A stretch of DNA of 64,000 nucleotides from IMG/VR virus record IMGVR_UViG_3300045131_001195, positions 1 through 64,000 of that record. One strand, given 5' to 3'. Positions 2,810-6,593 of the stretch are shown here, piece after piece; within the stretch, counting starts at the first letter, position 1, and each line of letters opens with the position of its first letter. The translations under genes and the position numbers were made by a program. Origin of the DNA: an uncultured virus (IMG/VR IMGVR_UViG_3300045131_001195) (Duplodnaviria > Heunggongvirae > Uroviricota > Caudoviricetes). The notes below the pieces were generated by a model, which searched no databases, was not told the origin of the DNA, and saw only the letters and a list, made by a program, of their open reading frames with translations.

Positions 2810-3157
2810 ATGAAAATTAATATAAATGATTTAACATTAAATGCTAAATTAGCAATATCCAGAGAAGAGAAAGAAAAGGGGATGATGAATAAAAGATTTG
2901 ATGACACATTTGATGCAATGCTATTCATAATGGACACACCCAGGTCATGTTTCTGGATGAAAAATTGCATTATCTCACTTGATATTATAATGATTCAAGA
3001 TAATGTTATAACAAAAATTCACCACAATTGCCCCCCTTGCTCAACAGAAAAATGTAAAAGATATTGTGGTGATGGTAATTTGGTTCTGGAGGTAGTTGGG
3101 GGCACTTGTGATAAACATAATATTAACGAAGGTGATGTTATAAATCTTAATAACTAG
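2810..3157 (+). CDS. DUF192-family protein
   Basis: KGMM...MLF...FWMKNCIISLDII...VLEV motif pattern. Confidence 0.8.
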   Translation: MKININDLTLNAKLAISREEKEKGMMNKRFDDTFDAMLFIMDTPRSCFWMKNCIISLDIIMIQDNVITKIHHNCPPCSTEKCKRYCGDGNLVLEVVGGTCDKHNINEGDVINLNN

Positions 3158-4625
3158 AAATCTCCTTCTCTAATTTGGTTTTTATTTTACTTGCAATATC
3201 TTTCATTAATGTCAGATATTGAGTTTCAGTTCTTGGCTCTGATTTGTAGGTGCTTGTTTTTGGTGCATATGTTCTTGGTTCAGTTGATTTTGGTGCATAC
3301 GTTCTTGGTTCTTTTGATGGTGGTCTGCTACCCCTACCAATAAAGTTAAGTCCAGAAATATTTGTAATACTTGGATGACCCCCACTATTTGCTTGAATTA
3401 AATCCCAAGCATTTAGTGCAATACTATCTAATTTCTTTTTCTCCTCTTCAGTTAATTCACCAAACAACTTATCCATAATTCCCTTTAATTCCTCATTTGT
3501 TTTTGGAGCACCTTCTTTTGTATAATATTTATCACCATAAGTGGCATAAAAATCATTAAAGGTAAAACCAACACTTTCTTCTGTTGCTTTTGATTCACTA
3601 ACCCATTTAATTGTTGATAATAAAATTAATTTATCTTCTAACATAGGTTTAAATTGCCCCATAACTTTTTGTGCCAATTCACCTAAATGTAATTTGCTAT
3701 ACTTGGGGTTTGGTTTAAATGGATTTTTTGAAACTTGAATTAATCCTAGTGGCCAGTATATAATTAAGAAATCAGCATCAGGTTGGTTTTTAAATGATGT
3801 ATATCTATCGTATGAACCTGTTCCCTTTAAAGAACCCATACCATATTGGTAAATAATACCATCTTTAAATTCAACATTCTTATGACCCTTCATACTTTCA
3901 ATATACTTTTCAGCATTTGCTTGTAAATCTTCTGGGAGTTCAGTAGTATTTTCTTTCATCCATTTCTTTATATTATTCAATATTGATAAAATGGAAGGTT
4001 TTGAATTCATAACCAAATTTTCAAGAAATCCTTTCTTGTTTTTAAAAGCCAATAGTAATTTATTTGCAACTAAACCCATTAATAATTTATTCTCTCTAAC
4101 ACTTTTTGATTTGTCAAATTTGAATAAATAATTAATAACATCATCTGTAGTTAAACCTTGTCTAACAAAGTCAGCAGAGTCAACTGTATTTATAATTAAA
4201 ATATCAGTATCACTAAACAAATCATTTTTTGAAATAACTTGTGAAATTGTTTCTGCATTCGATCTGGCTTTTTTAAATTGCCCAGATGTTTTCTTGGTAT
4301 CAACCCCAATCTGACTATCATGGTGGTCTGTGTGTATTTTAAACATAGGTTTTCCATGAGCAAAATCCACTAGAACAGGCATAGTGTCTCCTAAGGCATC
4401 ATTCTTCTTTACAGCAAATTCTGTATCTCCGTATTGGATAATATGTGCATCAACAACTTTGATGCCATTATCTTCCAAGTATTTCTTCATGGCCAAAGCC
4501 GAGGCAACTCCATCAAGCCCTTAGAGGTCCTGGTGAAAGTAGATCTCCGCTTTATTATAACGGTTCGCAAGAGCATCAATATCTCTAATTCCACTTTCTA
4601 CCAGGACCTGATTGTTTTTTCTCAT
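3147..4625 (-). CDS. DHH-superfamily phosphoesterase with an in-frame TAA (4521-4523) inside motif I; candidate recoded gene
   Basis: Frame from ATG 4625 reads MRKNNQVLVESGIRDIDALANRYNKAEIYFHQDL*GLDGVASALAMKKYL... in frame with ORF 3147..4496. Motif II VLVDFAH, DHH motif HTDHHDS and C-terminal SGGH are intact. Confidence 0.75.
4525..4609 (-). other. GC-rich mRNA stem (19 bp, 1 bulge) ending at the codon before the internal stop
   Basis: AGGUCCUGGU-A-GAAAGUGGA (4609-4590) pairs with UCUACUUUC-ACCAGGACCU (4543-4525). Confidence 0.8.
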
Positions 4626-4643
4626 AGTCGTTTATTTTTTATT

Positions 4644-4650
4644 ATAAATA
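4644..4650 (-). promoter_or_regulatory. TATTTAT putative late-promoter motif (representative copy, upstream of the DHH gene)
   Basis: Same heptamer 13-22 nt upstream of starts at 1580, 4625, 14721, 34601, 41257, 44870, 48849, 51498, 59634 (minus) and 2810, 7681 (plus). Confidence 0.6.
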
Positions 4651-4652
4651 GA

Positions 4653-5567
4653 TTAGTTATGCGTTTTTAACACATTTATATACTTTGTTTTTTCAATTAA
4701 TTCATCTAAAGTAATTGAACATTTATCTTGTTTTGATAAATTGTTATGTTGTGTTAGTATTTGTAAGTTTTCCTTGGCACTCAAAATTTCAGGTGGTAAA
4801 TTATTTCTAAACCCTTCTGCTACACTAAATTTATGGTCAATATGATAAGTATTGAAACTTATTTTAAGATTATTAGGATTAATTATATTTTTATATTGTT
4901 TATAGGTTTTTTTAGTCATAGACCTAACTATCCTATAATAATTTTTAATAATTAACATATCTTCCTTTGATAAATTAAGTGCAATTGAATTATAAAAACA
5001 TTTACTGCATATAAATTTTTTATGTTTAGCAACAAAATTAACATATCTTTTATTAGAAATATGCCCATTTTTACACTCAACAACTAATTTACTATTTTTA
5101 CCATCTAATTCTACTAATGATAACAATTTAAAGCCATTTTTATTTACTATTTTTTTTAAAAAAACTTCATTTATTATACTTTGATTCTTTTTTATTTTGA
5201 CATCATCAATTAAAGAGGGGTTTTTAATACCTTTCCATTTTTCAGAATAGATTAATTTTAATTCTTTAACTCTTTCTTCACTATGAAAATCACTCCATTT
5301 TCTATTATCACCAAATCTACCATTACCTTCACCAGAACACTGGCAAGGTCTGCATATTTGTATATTAAAATTATTTTTTACTTTAGTTAAATGATGAGCA
5401 CTTATTGAATGAATTTTACTTGGGGTTTTACATTTTGGATTATCGCAAACCCAGATTACTTTATAAGCAGTAGTCCCTTTTTTATTTGTTAAGTCTTCAA
5501 CTTCAACCATATCATAATAAATTATTTTAGATTTAAAATAAACTGGCTTCCAAATAGATTTAATCAT
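4653..5567 (-). CDS. Free-standing HNH homing-type endonuclease with Zn-ribbon/NUMOD-like modules
   Basis: C-terminal YHIDHKFS...ENLQILTQHNNLSK HNH core; VIWVCDNPKC, CRPC-SGEGNGRFG, ECKNGH, CSKC modules. Confidence 0.8.
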   Translation of the reverse strand: MIKSIWKPVYFKSKIIYYDMVEVEDLTNKKGTTAYKVIWVCDNPKCKTPSKIHSISAHHLTKVKNNFNIQICRPCQCSGEGNGRFGDNRKWSDFHSEERVKELKLIYSEKWKGIKNPSLIDDVKIKKNQSIINEVFLKKIVNKNGFKLLSLVELDGKNSKLVVECKNGHISNKRYVNFVAKHKKFICSKCFYNSIALNLSKEDMLIIKNYYRIVRSMTKKTYKQYKNIINPNNLKISFNTYHIDHKFSVAEGFRNNLPPEILSAKENLQILTQHNNLSKQDKCSITLDELIEKTKYINVLKTHN

Positions 5568-5604
5568 TTTTCAATAGCCCCTCATTAATTAAATTTCTTC
5601 TCAT
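5560..5604 (-). pseudogene. Vestigial 14-aa ORF MRRNLINEGLLKND, possible original 5' end of the DHH gene
   Basis: Starts by TAATG overlap with the upstream stop; ATGAGAAGAAAT resembles the DHH start ATGAGAAAAAAC; its stop lies just inside the HNH start. Confidence 0.4.
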
Positions 5605-5972
5605 TATTCTAATGTTAATAAATATTTCATTTTATTTACTTCTGCCAAAATCTCATCTCTGATATTTAACAAATCAGTATCTTCTCCTTGTGTTAATTTT
5701 TCTGACAAACCCATTAAGAACTCTGTGAAATCATCCAGATATTCTTGCATTGAGAAACCCTTTATATCTTCAAACTCCATTGTAAAACCCCCATCATATT
5801 CAGGACGTCCATGTTTACCCATACAAACCTCAACATACTTATCAATCAAATCATCTAAATTATCATAAAATTTACCATATGCTTTATGTTTTGCATATGA
5901 TTTTGTTTGCCAATGCAAGAATCTAAATTGTACTTGTGTATTGACTAACTCTAATATAATCTCATCATTCAT
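5604..5972 (-). CDS. Dps/ferritin-like protein (DUF5856-like)
   Basis: HWQTKSYAKHKAYGKFYDNLDDLIDKYVE ferroxidase-type helix motif. Confidence 0.8.
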   Translation of the reverse strand: MNDEIILELVNTQVQFRFLHWQTKSYAKHKAYGKFYDNLDDLIDKYVEVCMGKHGRPEYDGGFTMEFEDIKGFSMQEYLDDFTEFLMGLSEKLTQGEDTDLLNIRDEILAEVNKMKYLLTLE

Positions 5973-5990: not shown

Positions 5991-6593
5991 TTAAAGTAGT
6001 TTTATCAACCGTTTTTTTCCACGACCGTTTCTTTCTCTATAATTATCATTAAATGTTTTACTATCCAATTCATATAGAAAACTTTCTTCCATATTAAATA
6101 AAAACTTTTGGTCTCTATGACTGCCACGTGCTAATTTAGAGAAAAATTCCTCTGTTGTATCACTATCTATTTGCATATTTTTATCCCAGCCACTTTTTTT
6201 GAAATTGTTTAAAACTTCACCCATATCTGACATATCATTTGTGCCAATTTCAATAAACTCGTTTTTACTTTTATAGATGACAGAATACTGGTCATAATAT
6301 TCTCCCAAAAAAATTAAATCTTCTTTTCTTATGTTTGGAATAAAAAGTGATTTTTCATTTACCCAATCACCCTCTTCTTTGAAGCCACCATCCATTTCAA
6401 TGTAGCCAATTTTAAGTTTATCTTTGATGAAAGATTTTAACTCTTTATACCTTTCCAAATTTTCATCCATAGATAAATATTTTCTAAATGGCGAAATAAC
6501 TCCAAAAGACGATGAGTCATTCTCAATGTGTTTCCATATTCTTGATAATCTAGTTTCATAGATTATTGCATTTTTTTCTATAATTTCTATCAT
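5991..6593 (-). CDS. Putative S-adenosylmethionine lyase (T3 SAMase-like)
   Basis: VISPFR...ENLER...GGFKE...EKS...YDQYSVIYKS follows the T3 SAMase pattern LVSAFR...NMSR...GCYRE...EKT...WEQDCVLVYKS (recalled sequence, aligned by eye). Confidence 0.6.
   Translation of the reverse strand: MIEIIEKNAIIYETRLSRIWKHIENDSSSFGVISPFRKYLSMDENLERYKELKSFIKDKLKIGYIEMDGGFKEEGDWVNEKSLFIPNIRKEDLIFLGEYYDQYSVIYKSKNEFIEIGTNDMSDMGEVLNNFKKSGWDKNMQIDSDTTEEFFSKLARGSHRDQKFLFNMEESFLYELDSKTFNDNYRERNGRGKKRLIKLL

Follow-up and report, generated by a model that had tools for sequence, protein, structure and literature searches.

The interrupted DHH-like gene and its neighbours

We analysed a stretch of 64,000 nucleotides (nt) of DNA (IMG/VR record IMGVR_UViG_3300045131_001195, positions 1 to 64,000; hereafter the window) from an uncultured virus of the Caudoviricetes, in which a gene for a DHH-like protein is interrupted by a short coding gap and preceded by a free-standing gene for an HNH-like endonuclease. 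All coordinates below are window positions, and the compared loci carry L-numbers, L003 being the window's own contig. The source record measures 75.5 kilobases and is estimated to be 24% complete, and the phage is therefore a jumbo phage. The DNA of the window was recovered nearly whole in 17 public lake or freshwater runs, and the identical gap is present in several independent contigs; the DNA is thus real and not an artefact.

On the minus strand, the order is a Dps-like gene, a 14-codon relic, the HNH-like gene and the DHH-like gene. The Dps-like gene (5604..5972; Pfam DUF5856, E 9e-21; PHROG 858 'starvation-inducible') forms the left flank of the cassette described below and its left homology arm with the HNH-free locus L004. 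The relic, a mini open reading frame (mini-ORF) reading MRRNLINEGLLKND (5560..5604), starts with an ATG that overlaps the stop of the Dps-like gene (TAATG), and its own stop overlaps the HNH start codon. The HNH-like (H-N-N) gene (4653..5567) encodes 304 amino acids (aa) with Cys-pair modules in the N-terminal part, and ends 130 nt ahead of the gap and 27 nt ahead of the DHH ATG at 4625. The original prediction had placed the HNH gene about 130 nt before the gap in the same orientation and the relic in coupling with the Dps-like stop, and we found all these features where it had put them.

The first part of the interrupted gene, ORF1, comprises 34 codons (4524..4625) from a new ATG to a take-off Leu codon, CTC (4526-4524). 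It reads MRKNNQVLVESGIRDIDALANRYNKAEIYFHQDL and ends in EIYFHQDL, which is followed by the coding gap (4515..4523), made up of a stop codon TAA (4523-4521), a filler GGG (4520-4518) and a landing Leu codon CTT (4517-4515), and then by DGVASALAMKK... in the same frame down to 3147. The gap thereby falls between the Leu codon and the second Asp codon of the metal-binding motif H-x-D-L-D-G. The remainder of the gene, from the landing codon to its stop (3147..4517), is open for 455 codons and carries the invariant VDFAHG Asp, the DHH motif and the GGH motif. Two stretches of ORF1 form the arms of a predicted hairpin: the 5' arm (4591..4607) covers the codons V-L-V-E-S-G and the 3' arm (4527..4542) the codons I-Y-F-H-Q-D, with its last base directly before the take-off codon. 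No tRNA genes were found in the window, hence no phage suppressor or Leu tRNA is encoded there.

The interrupted gene is best described, from its motifs, as encoding a distant DHH-like protein, a putative phosphoesterase. The residues H29, D31, D33, G34, D82, D95, H96, H97, G410, G411 and H412 are invariant in 17 intact relatives, so that the family motifs DxD, D, DHH and (DHHA1) GGGH are all represented. All 17 intact relatives matched PF01368, each of them under the gathering threshold (L004, 18.5 vs 28.1 bits; best E 4.9e-5). The window's interrupted gene itself gave no Pfam match, and the DHH profile found no relevant match among the sequences of the Protein Data Bank (PDB). The C-terminus of the protein (3147-3330, minus strand) contains a short tandem peptide repeat of the EPRTYAPK type in two to three copies, within a low-complexity tail that varies among relatives.

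For the 304-aa protein, no HNH family of Pfam was detected (E up to 10 for the window protein and up to 0.1 for 24 members of its family), its profile gave no relevant match against PDB sequences, a Foldseek search of its model against the PDB gave none at E 0.001 or better, and the PHROGs matched were only families of unknown function. On the other hand, the 24 homologues share the motif Y-H-[IL]-D-H-K ... N-L ... N-x-x-K with H242, D244, H245, N267 and N276 invariant, that is, with the catalytic His and Asn and the metal-ligand His/Asn in the order of the HNH superfamily. Residues 189-283 of the AlphaFold model (predicted local distance difference test score 81) matched most closely, if weakly, 4h9d (VIA-align wide; Z 4.6, root-mean-square deviation 4.8, 72 residues aligned), followed by a weak match of the C-terminal domain to 5h0o (Z 3.9), both of which are HNH nicking endonucleases. 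A NUMOD3 motif occurs in two of the 24 members. The suspicion that the HNH protein of L006 is missing its last catalytic residue was rejected, since the 24-sequence alignment shows a conserved Asn that L006 retains.

Entry of the cassette and its exchange among relatives

The loci L004 and L005, the DHH protein of which is 94% identical to that of the window, contain neither the HNH gene nor the gap. As the original prediction had foreseen for HNH-free relatives, their Dps-like gene stands directly before an intact, gap-free DHH gene, with its stop overlapping the start of that gene, which reads MRRNLINEGGIRDIN.... The resemblance of the relic to a DHH start, noted earlier from the window alone, is explained by this comparison: the first 27 nt of the relic (5604-5578) are the actual start of the DHH gene in L004. 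The resemblance is not due to chance because these 27 nt close a block of 406 nt (window 5983-5578) with 93.8% identity to L004. In the blastn alignment of L003 with L004, homology breaks off at window position 5578 and returns at about 4592, while the corresponding L004 positions, 4913 and 4914, are adjacent; this is therefore a clean insertion of 985 nt (4593..5577) at codon 9/10 of the old gene. The inserted segment contains the HNH gene, a spacer and the new beginning of the DHH gene, namely its start codon and first ~11 codons, among which lies the 5' hairpin arm.

Downstream of the insertion the window is a mosaic. Sliding identity shows that up to the gap it is 98% like L006, a locus with both HNH and gap; over the first ~100 nt of its DHH gene, identity is 95-98% to L006 and 57-63% to L004. 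Over the next ~190 nt past the gap it is 87-93% like L006, and from ~4330 on it is 95-100% like L004. The tract 3' of the gap that is nearer to L006 than to L004 thus extends over 4330..4514, the crossover at ~4330 being approximate, and the window carries ~260 nt (260-300) of donor-like DHH 5' sequence in addition to the 985-nt insertion. Within the ORF1 region, the window and L006 differ at 3 positions in ~135 nt, though their HNH proteins are only 73% identical. Judged from these alignments, the mosaic is the signature of a cassette that was copied in together with a co-converted flank. We conclude that an L004-like genome received the cassette at codon 9/10 of its DHH gene, with the old start left behind as the 14-codon relic, and that donor sequence took the place of about 260-300 nt of the 5' part of this gene. 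The proposal that an HNH gene had invaded the 5' end of the DHH gene is borne out in this respect.

A search of viral contigs with the HNH profile yielded 199 relatives. Among the best 80 of these, 28 loci have full-length relatives directly 5' of a DHH gene, and the other 52 share the C-terminal domain only. Two loci with different HNH genes, L055 (HNH of clade A, the clade of the window's HNH, with a 6-nt gap) and L085 (HNH of another clade, gap-free), agree to 95% as far as the HNH start, and 90% identity returns 15 nt past the Asp codon. With alike flanks and a differing middle, the exchanged unit is therefore HNH, ORF1 and gap together. The right edge of the exchanged DNA lies 15-190 nt beyond the gap. 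Four further pairs (L050/L147, L129/L138, L054/L124 and L125/L149) differ by the HNH gene alone and have the gap in common, and in L247 the Dps-like gene stands directly before a DHH gene with a 9-nt gap, without an HNH gene. The HNH-only indel between L050 (2962-3899) and L147 (2361-2395) has 98%-identical flanks and a stretch of ~35 nt that aligns at both junctions, possibly a direct repeat through which the HNH gene was lost or gained. A quick IQ-TREE phylogeny of the DHH body (61 rows, residues 70-400 counted from landing, without L076) shows at least 11 changes of gap state, and a single clade of gapped alleles was rejected by the approximately unbiased test (p 0.0005). The region as a mobile cassette, consisting of an HNH-type homing endonuclease gene, a replacement DHH 5' end and a coding gap, is well supported.

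In many loci the slot directly 5' of the DHH gene is a variable hotspot that hosts N6/N4 or C5 DNA methyltransferases, Dps-like genes and HNH genes of at least three clades (e.g., L018:857-1720, L020:2806-3660, L130:1527-2345 and L132:1495-2355). ORFs of ~288 aa upstream of HNH-free alleles were considered as another endonuclease family and dismissed, five of the seven checked being DNA methyltransferases; the remaining two (L140, L148) showed no significant Pfam family. Beyond the Dps-like gene, at 5991-6593 on the minus strand, the window encodes a protein of 200 aa that weakly matches DUF3293 and the family of S-adenosylmethionine lyases (E 1e-6 and 3e-5); this protein may be an anti-restriction S-adenosylmethionine lyase and is missing at that place in L004.

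Gapped alleles, the hairpin and a probable ribosomal hop

In a first set of 37 DHH loci from viral contigs, the motif was interrupted only in the window's own contig and in three identical contigs (L006-8). We describe the gap from a larger pool assembled by protein and profile searches and by DNA pattern scans for the interrupted motif, in which 123 viral loci reduce to 67 unique alleles: 30 gap-free, 27 with a gap of 6 nt, two with 8 nt, two with 9 nt, five with 11 nt and one with the motif deleted. The gapped alleles thus number 36. A scan of metagenome contigs adds 14 loci with 11 nt, four with 8 nt, one with 9 nt and one with 16 nt. The 6-nt pattern matched DHH genes in 43 of 43 cases. 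The variable-gap pattern did so in 12 of 33 matches on viral contigs, the other 21 being unrelated sequences, and in 20 of 55 on metagenome contigs, the other 35 being chance matches, two of which resemble the DHH motif at a contig end. The 30 gap-free alleles read FH.DLDGV unbroken, as do two huge-phage relatives with FHKDLDGV; where an allele such as L020 reads ...CACCAGGACCTTGATGG..., the window has nine additional bases including a stop, which agrees with the 9-nt insert seen originally.

Every gapped allele, the 36 unique viral ones included, has the same composition, namely a Leu codon (CTN), a stop, 0-10 bases, a second Leu codon (CTN) and Asp-Gly. The stop is TGA in 28, TAG in five and TAA in three of the 36, and the window has TAA where L006 has TGA; TGG, which the pattern permitted, occurred in none of the 43 matches. 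The take-off codon is CTC in the window and CTT in most alleles, and the context CTT-TGA-C was found in 20 of the 36, the window having CTC-TAA-G. The 11-nt forms contain 10 different stretches of 8 nt between take-off and landing codons, each beginning with TGA. Gapped alleles also have 3-5 extra, mostly basic N-terminal residues. The longest form, in metagenome contig L207, has 13 bases between the Leu codons, a displacement of 16 nt, and forms 10 of the 16 hairpin pairs in the standard register. L056 (8-1543) represents another outcome: a window-clade HNH gene is followed by a DHH gene without ~21 codons of motif I (...SGIRDIN|STAIAMK...), the target region being deleted rather than gapped.

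Reassignment or readthrough of the stop codon was rejected as an account of the gap, as all three stops occur at the site, the neighbouring genes of the window end in TAA, and the 8-, 11- and 16-nt forms are out of frame. In the viral contigs L069 and L074 an in-frame TGA occupies the position of an invariant Trp 265 codons past landing, so that TGA seems to encode Trp in these phages; L069 has TAA as its gap stop.

Gapped and gap-free alleles also differ in the messenger RNA (mRNA) 5' to the take-off codon. RNAalifold, unguided, predicted a stem in which the V-L-V-E-S-G codons pair with the I-Y-F-H-Q-D codons before take-off. Over its 16 pairs and 33 distinct gapped sequences, 95.5% of cells are paired, vs 35-52% with slid partners; compensatory changes occur at four stem pairs (20 cells), and none of 500 shuffles reached the observed values. 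In gapped alleles 94.8% of cells are paired and the mean minimum free energy is -32.1 kcal/mol, compared with 47.5% and -9.7 kcal/mol at the same positions of gap-free alleles, so that the conserved structure is a property of gapped, not of gap-free alleles. The stem of the window reaches -35 kcal/mol (z -4.1). The stem includes G-U pairs, one of them invariant, which point to sense-strand RNA, and synonymous divergence in ORF1 is several-fold below that of the downstream part. Alleles of the L131/L164 type (also L139, L151 and L165) have kept a 6-nt gap and lost the hairpin (12 of 16 pairs, -8.4 kcal/mol); the L131-type allele has TAA in place of a conserved Ser codon 83 codons downstream and looks like a decaying copy. 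In L076 (2035-2657) the HNH gene is broken into two ORFs and the downstream DHH gene is frameshifted, the whole locus decaying in one lineage.

Such decaying alleles (the nonsense codon of the L131 type, the frameshift of L076 and the motif deletion of L056), together with the recent L004-like origin of the window's DHH body, are what one would expect if gapped DHH genes were dead or dispensable passengers that look intact because of recent transfer. We consider this very improbable. The downstream frame is open for at least 430 codons in nearly all gapped alleles. Across 15 chosen pairs of gapped alleles, the ratio of nonsynonymous to synonymous divergence (dN/dS) is 0.02-0.25 in the first 60 codons after landing (computable for 12 of the 15) and 0.04-0.20 in the remainder of the gene, at a synonymous divergence (dS) of 0.5-2.7. 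Synonymously saturated gapped alleles keep open frames and low ratios, and this holds within the 11-nt and 8-nt clades. Moreover, compensatory changes are seen in the hairpin, which only the decaying L131 type has lost, and the stop stays a stop while its identity varies. By these ratios, the DHH gene downstream of the gap is under purifying selection.

The 6- and 9-nt forms are in frame, while the 8-, 11- and 16-nt forms shift the frame; plain readthrough is therefore excluded and no single frameshift fits all forms. A mixture of mechanisms without a hop could be envisaged, in which 6- and 9-nt forms are read through and the others are served by a -1/+2 or +1 frameshift, adding 2-5 residues to the motif. 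The context CTT-TGA-C found in 20 of the 36 alleles is the same as the programmed +1 frameshift site of release factor 2 (RF2; prfB), CUU-UGA-C, termination is weak where C follows TGA, and the 16-nt form of L207 can be read by a +1 shift. However, this explanation calls for frames 0, +2 and +1, with no single shift serving all, and the extra residues would separate the two Asp of H-x-D-x-D-G, which are invariant in the 17 intact relatives. It also leaves aside that the filler is free to vary at constant length and that a Leu codon always stands directly before the Asp codon, as a landing site needs. We regard mixed recoding as improbable.

Translation could also restart, so that a 34-aa ORF1 peptide and a re-initiated remainder would assemble as do the topoisomerase subunits gp39 and gp60 of phage T4, the gene of which, according to the T4 annotation, was split into two subunits by an HNH insertion. 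A GGAG-like run after the landing codon in many gapped alleles is in favour of such a split gene. Yet neither the landing site nor its vicinity offers a start codon, and the first downstream Met, ten codons past landing, gives way to Ile or Val in L051-54, L177 and L188; with this Met not conserved, a restart is unlikely. The nine codons from landing to Met are conserved as protein, in line with the low dN/dS of the first 60 codons, and a split would part two Asp residues that belong to one metal site. A split gene thus appears quite improbable.

Shifting from the first to the second Leu codon, on the other hand, restores H-x-D-L-D-G in every form, and a ribosomal stop-hop is the best reading of the gap. 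In the mechanism that we propose, CTC, the Leu codon of the window, would occupy the P site of the ribosome and the stop codon its A site, the peptidyl-tRNA-Leu would release, the mRNA would slide by 9 nt (6-16 nt in relatives) and the tRNA would re-pair at the next Leu codon. This would restore the exact HQDLDG and keep the DHH gene functional, with a predicted junction peptide of ...IYFHQDLDGVASALAMK or, in an alternative extent, ...AEIYFHQDLDGVASALAMK. The 16-base-pair hairpin, the 3' arm of which ends at the take-off codon, may re-form behind the ribosome and help pull the mRNA forward, and its outer 8 base pairs match the hop size; both ideas are conjecture, as is the analogy by which the hairpin would drive forward movement in the way proposed for the 5' stem-loop of T4 gene 60.

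With regard to the endonuclease, we suggest by analogy with T4 MobA that it would cut or nick gap-free alleles near the motif, that repair would copy the cassette in, and that the gap, perhaps with altered flanks, would protect its carriers. After fixation the HNH gene would often be lost, the gap and hairpin staying behind. In the T4 case, as described in a preprint, the insert protects against MobA nicking and HNH loss has been described as 'hit and run' (10.1101/2022.08.31.505936). Cutting of HQDLDG-coding DNA by the HNH protein with self-immunity conferred by the gap, as originally put forward, is a plausible analogy.

Several observations weigh against the combined explanation by cassette and hop. 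The support for the hop comes from comparison, and the single RNA-library contig that spans 4373-4523 without an indel is no proof of transcription; such contigs cover the locus partially, and expression, ends and strand are not deducible from them. Loci found by pattern have CTN-TRR-...-CTN by construction; the 11 unique gapped alleles that came from protein searches, with no pattern imposed, are all Leu-stop-...-Leu. The third base differs between take-off and landing codons in 12 of the 36 alleles, including that of the window. The 3' arm of the hairpin would lie inside the ribosome at take-off, which makes its role conjectural, and no nascent-peptide signal was identified in ORF1. The 304-aa protein is a putative HNH endonuclease, as suggested by motif residues and weak fold matches. 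Finally, 19 of the 36 unique gapped alleles are without an HNH gene, 10 of the 30 gap-free alleles carry HNH genes of other clades, the comparison of clade-A HNH with the gap on independent pairs (3:0, p about 0.25) is underpowered, and no association of any HNH gene with the gap was found on independent pairs.

The gapped alleles lacking an HNH gene and the missing association on independent pairs, as well as the methyltransferase and Dps-like genes in the slot 5' of the DHH gene, would also suit a regulatory role, in which gap and hairpin set the dosage of the DHH protein independently of the endonuclease and HNH genes merely use a common insertion hotspot. The close relatives of the window's HNH gene tell otherwise, since all 14 unique alleles with an HNH at least 52% identical to the window's (14/14 of clade A) carry the gap. 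Furthermore, swapped modules hold HNH, ORF1 and gap together, and HNH-only indels beside the same gap fit a later loss of the HNH gene. A purely regulatory gap is, in our view, highly improbable. The co-occurrence of HNH and gap that had been anticipated thus stands for close relatives of the window's HNH gene and does not extend to strict co-inheritance; the distribution fits invasion followed by frequent HNH loss, without proving it. Overall, we consider the explanation by cassette and hop as a whole probable.

Relation to known recoding systems and significance

The closest parallel is the mobA/gene 60 bypass cassette of T4, reportedly described by Bonocora et al. in 2011. Going by the accounts of T4, both systems have a free-standing HNH gene immediately 5' of a short ORF1, which ends in a gap within a conserved enzyme gene, a stop directly after take-off and a synonymous landing codon past the gap, a stem-loop 5' of take-off, and presence or absence of the cassette among near relatives with signs of HNH loss. 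They differ in the target, which is topoisomerase II in T4 and a DHH-like phosphoesterase here, in the size of the gap (50 nt vs 6-16 nt) and in the codons (Gly GGA vs Leu CTN). The T4 stem-loop, as far as the sources describe it, ends 9 nt before take-off, whereas here the 3' arm abuts the take-off codon and the hairpin encloses most of ORF1; unlike in T4, we identified no take-off (A-site) stem-loop and no nascent-peptide signal. A stem-loop forming 5' on the exiting mRNA has been proposed to drive bypassing in gene 60 (10.1101/2024.12.09.627546).

Comparison of the HNH profile with T4 gp60.1 gave an hhalign probability of 0.1%, and hmmsearch against the six frames of T4 2901-3800 gave E values above 0.25 with negative scores. 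The parallel with T4 drawn in the original prediction is therefore upheld in layout and recoding signals and does not extend to sequence homology; on sequence evidence, the cassette looks like an independent analogue that resembles the T4 cassette in its working, not by descent. The preprint by Manning and Atkins treats topoisomerase genes only, and the terms 'DHH' and 'phosphoesterase' occur in it 0 times (10.1101/2022.08.31.505936). No report of DHH-linked bypass was found in the literature searched, which lay largely outside subscription journals, and this is not proof of absence.

Matches to the C-terminal 140-150 residues of the HNH protein come from 125 phage records, most of them T4-like, in which the proteins are annotated as hypothetical or HNH; one such gene lies beside the tail sheath gene of T6. 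Free-standing HNH endonucleases of T-even phages spread by intronless homing in which the flanks are co-converted, and the mosaic flank of the window fits a co-conversion tract. The identity is, however, about 26-28% over half the protein, and the Cys-rich N-terminal part is specific to the DHH-linked family.

Stop-hopping at low level in Escherichia coli is said to have been observed by Weiss et al. in 1987 and O'Connor et al. in 1989. It is similar in that a peptidyl-tRNA quits a codon beside a slow or stop codon and re-pairs downstream, 9 nt specifying one amino acid. Those hops are unprogrammed, inefficient and synthetic or accidental, whereas the site described here is conserved in a natural, essential-looking motif with a dedicated hairpin. 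The RF2 site and the gapped alleles have in common a weak stop next to a Leu tRNA that tends to unpair. They differ in that a +1 shift would put the 6-, 8-, 9- and 11-nt forms into the wrong frame, and in the upstream Shine-Dalgarno stimulator of RF2, which was not seen here. In Cluster O mycobacteriophages, an HNH gene was inserted 5' of the tape measure gene, with an apparent non-coding gap as the result, for which the authors considered ribosome bypass (PMC4351075). The likeness lies in the position of the HNH at the 5' end of a gene and in the apparent gap; that study describes no defined take-off/landing pair, stop or hairpin, and non-canonical initiation is the alternative there.

For efficient programmed bypassing, T4 gene 60 (with its topoisomerase-gene homologues) has long been the one natural example. 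We lean towards the view that the gapped DHH alleles represent a second, independently evolved family of endonuclease-borne programmed bypass, a Leu stop-hop of 6-16 nt in which a hairpin re-forming behind the ribosome would be the driving force. This family would be widespread among jumbo phages of fresh water, with dozens of natural variants of gap, filler and stem. Such short gaps would bridge low-level stop-hops and the 50-nt bypass. Whether folding of the exiting mRNA drives ribosome movement can be tested directly on the natural series of 6, 8, 9, 11 and 16 nt, in which the stems covary, and the dozens of variants would be a ready mutational series. These alleles are also a warning for annotation, as such genes get called two ORFs or pseudogenes. 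If the reading is true, the combination of endonuclease and bypass gap would be a recurring evolutionary solution, by which a homing endonuclease can destroy its own target within an invariant active-site motif while the host gene survives.

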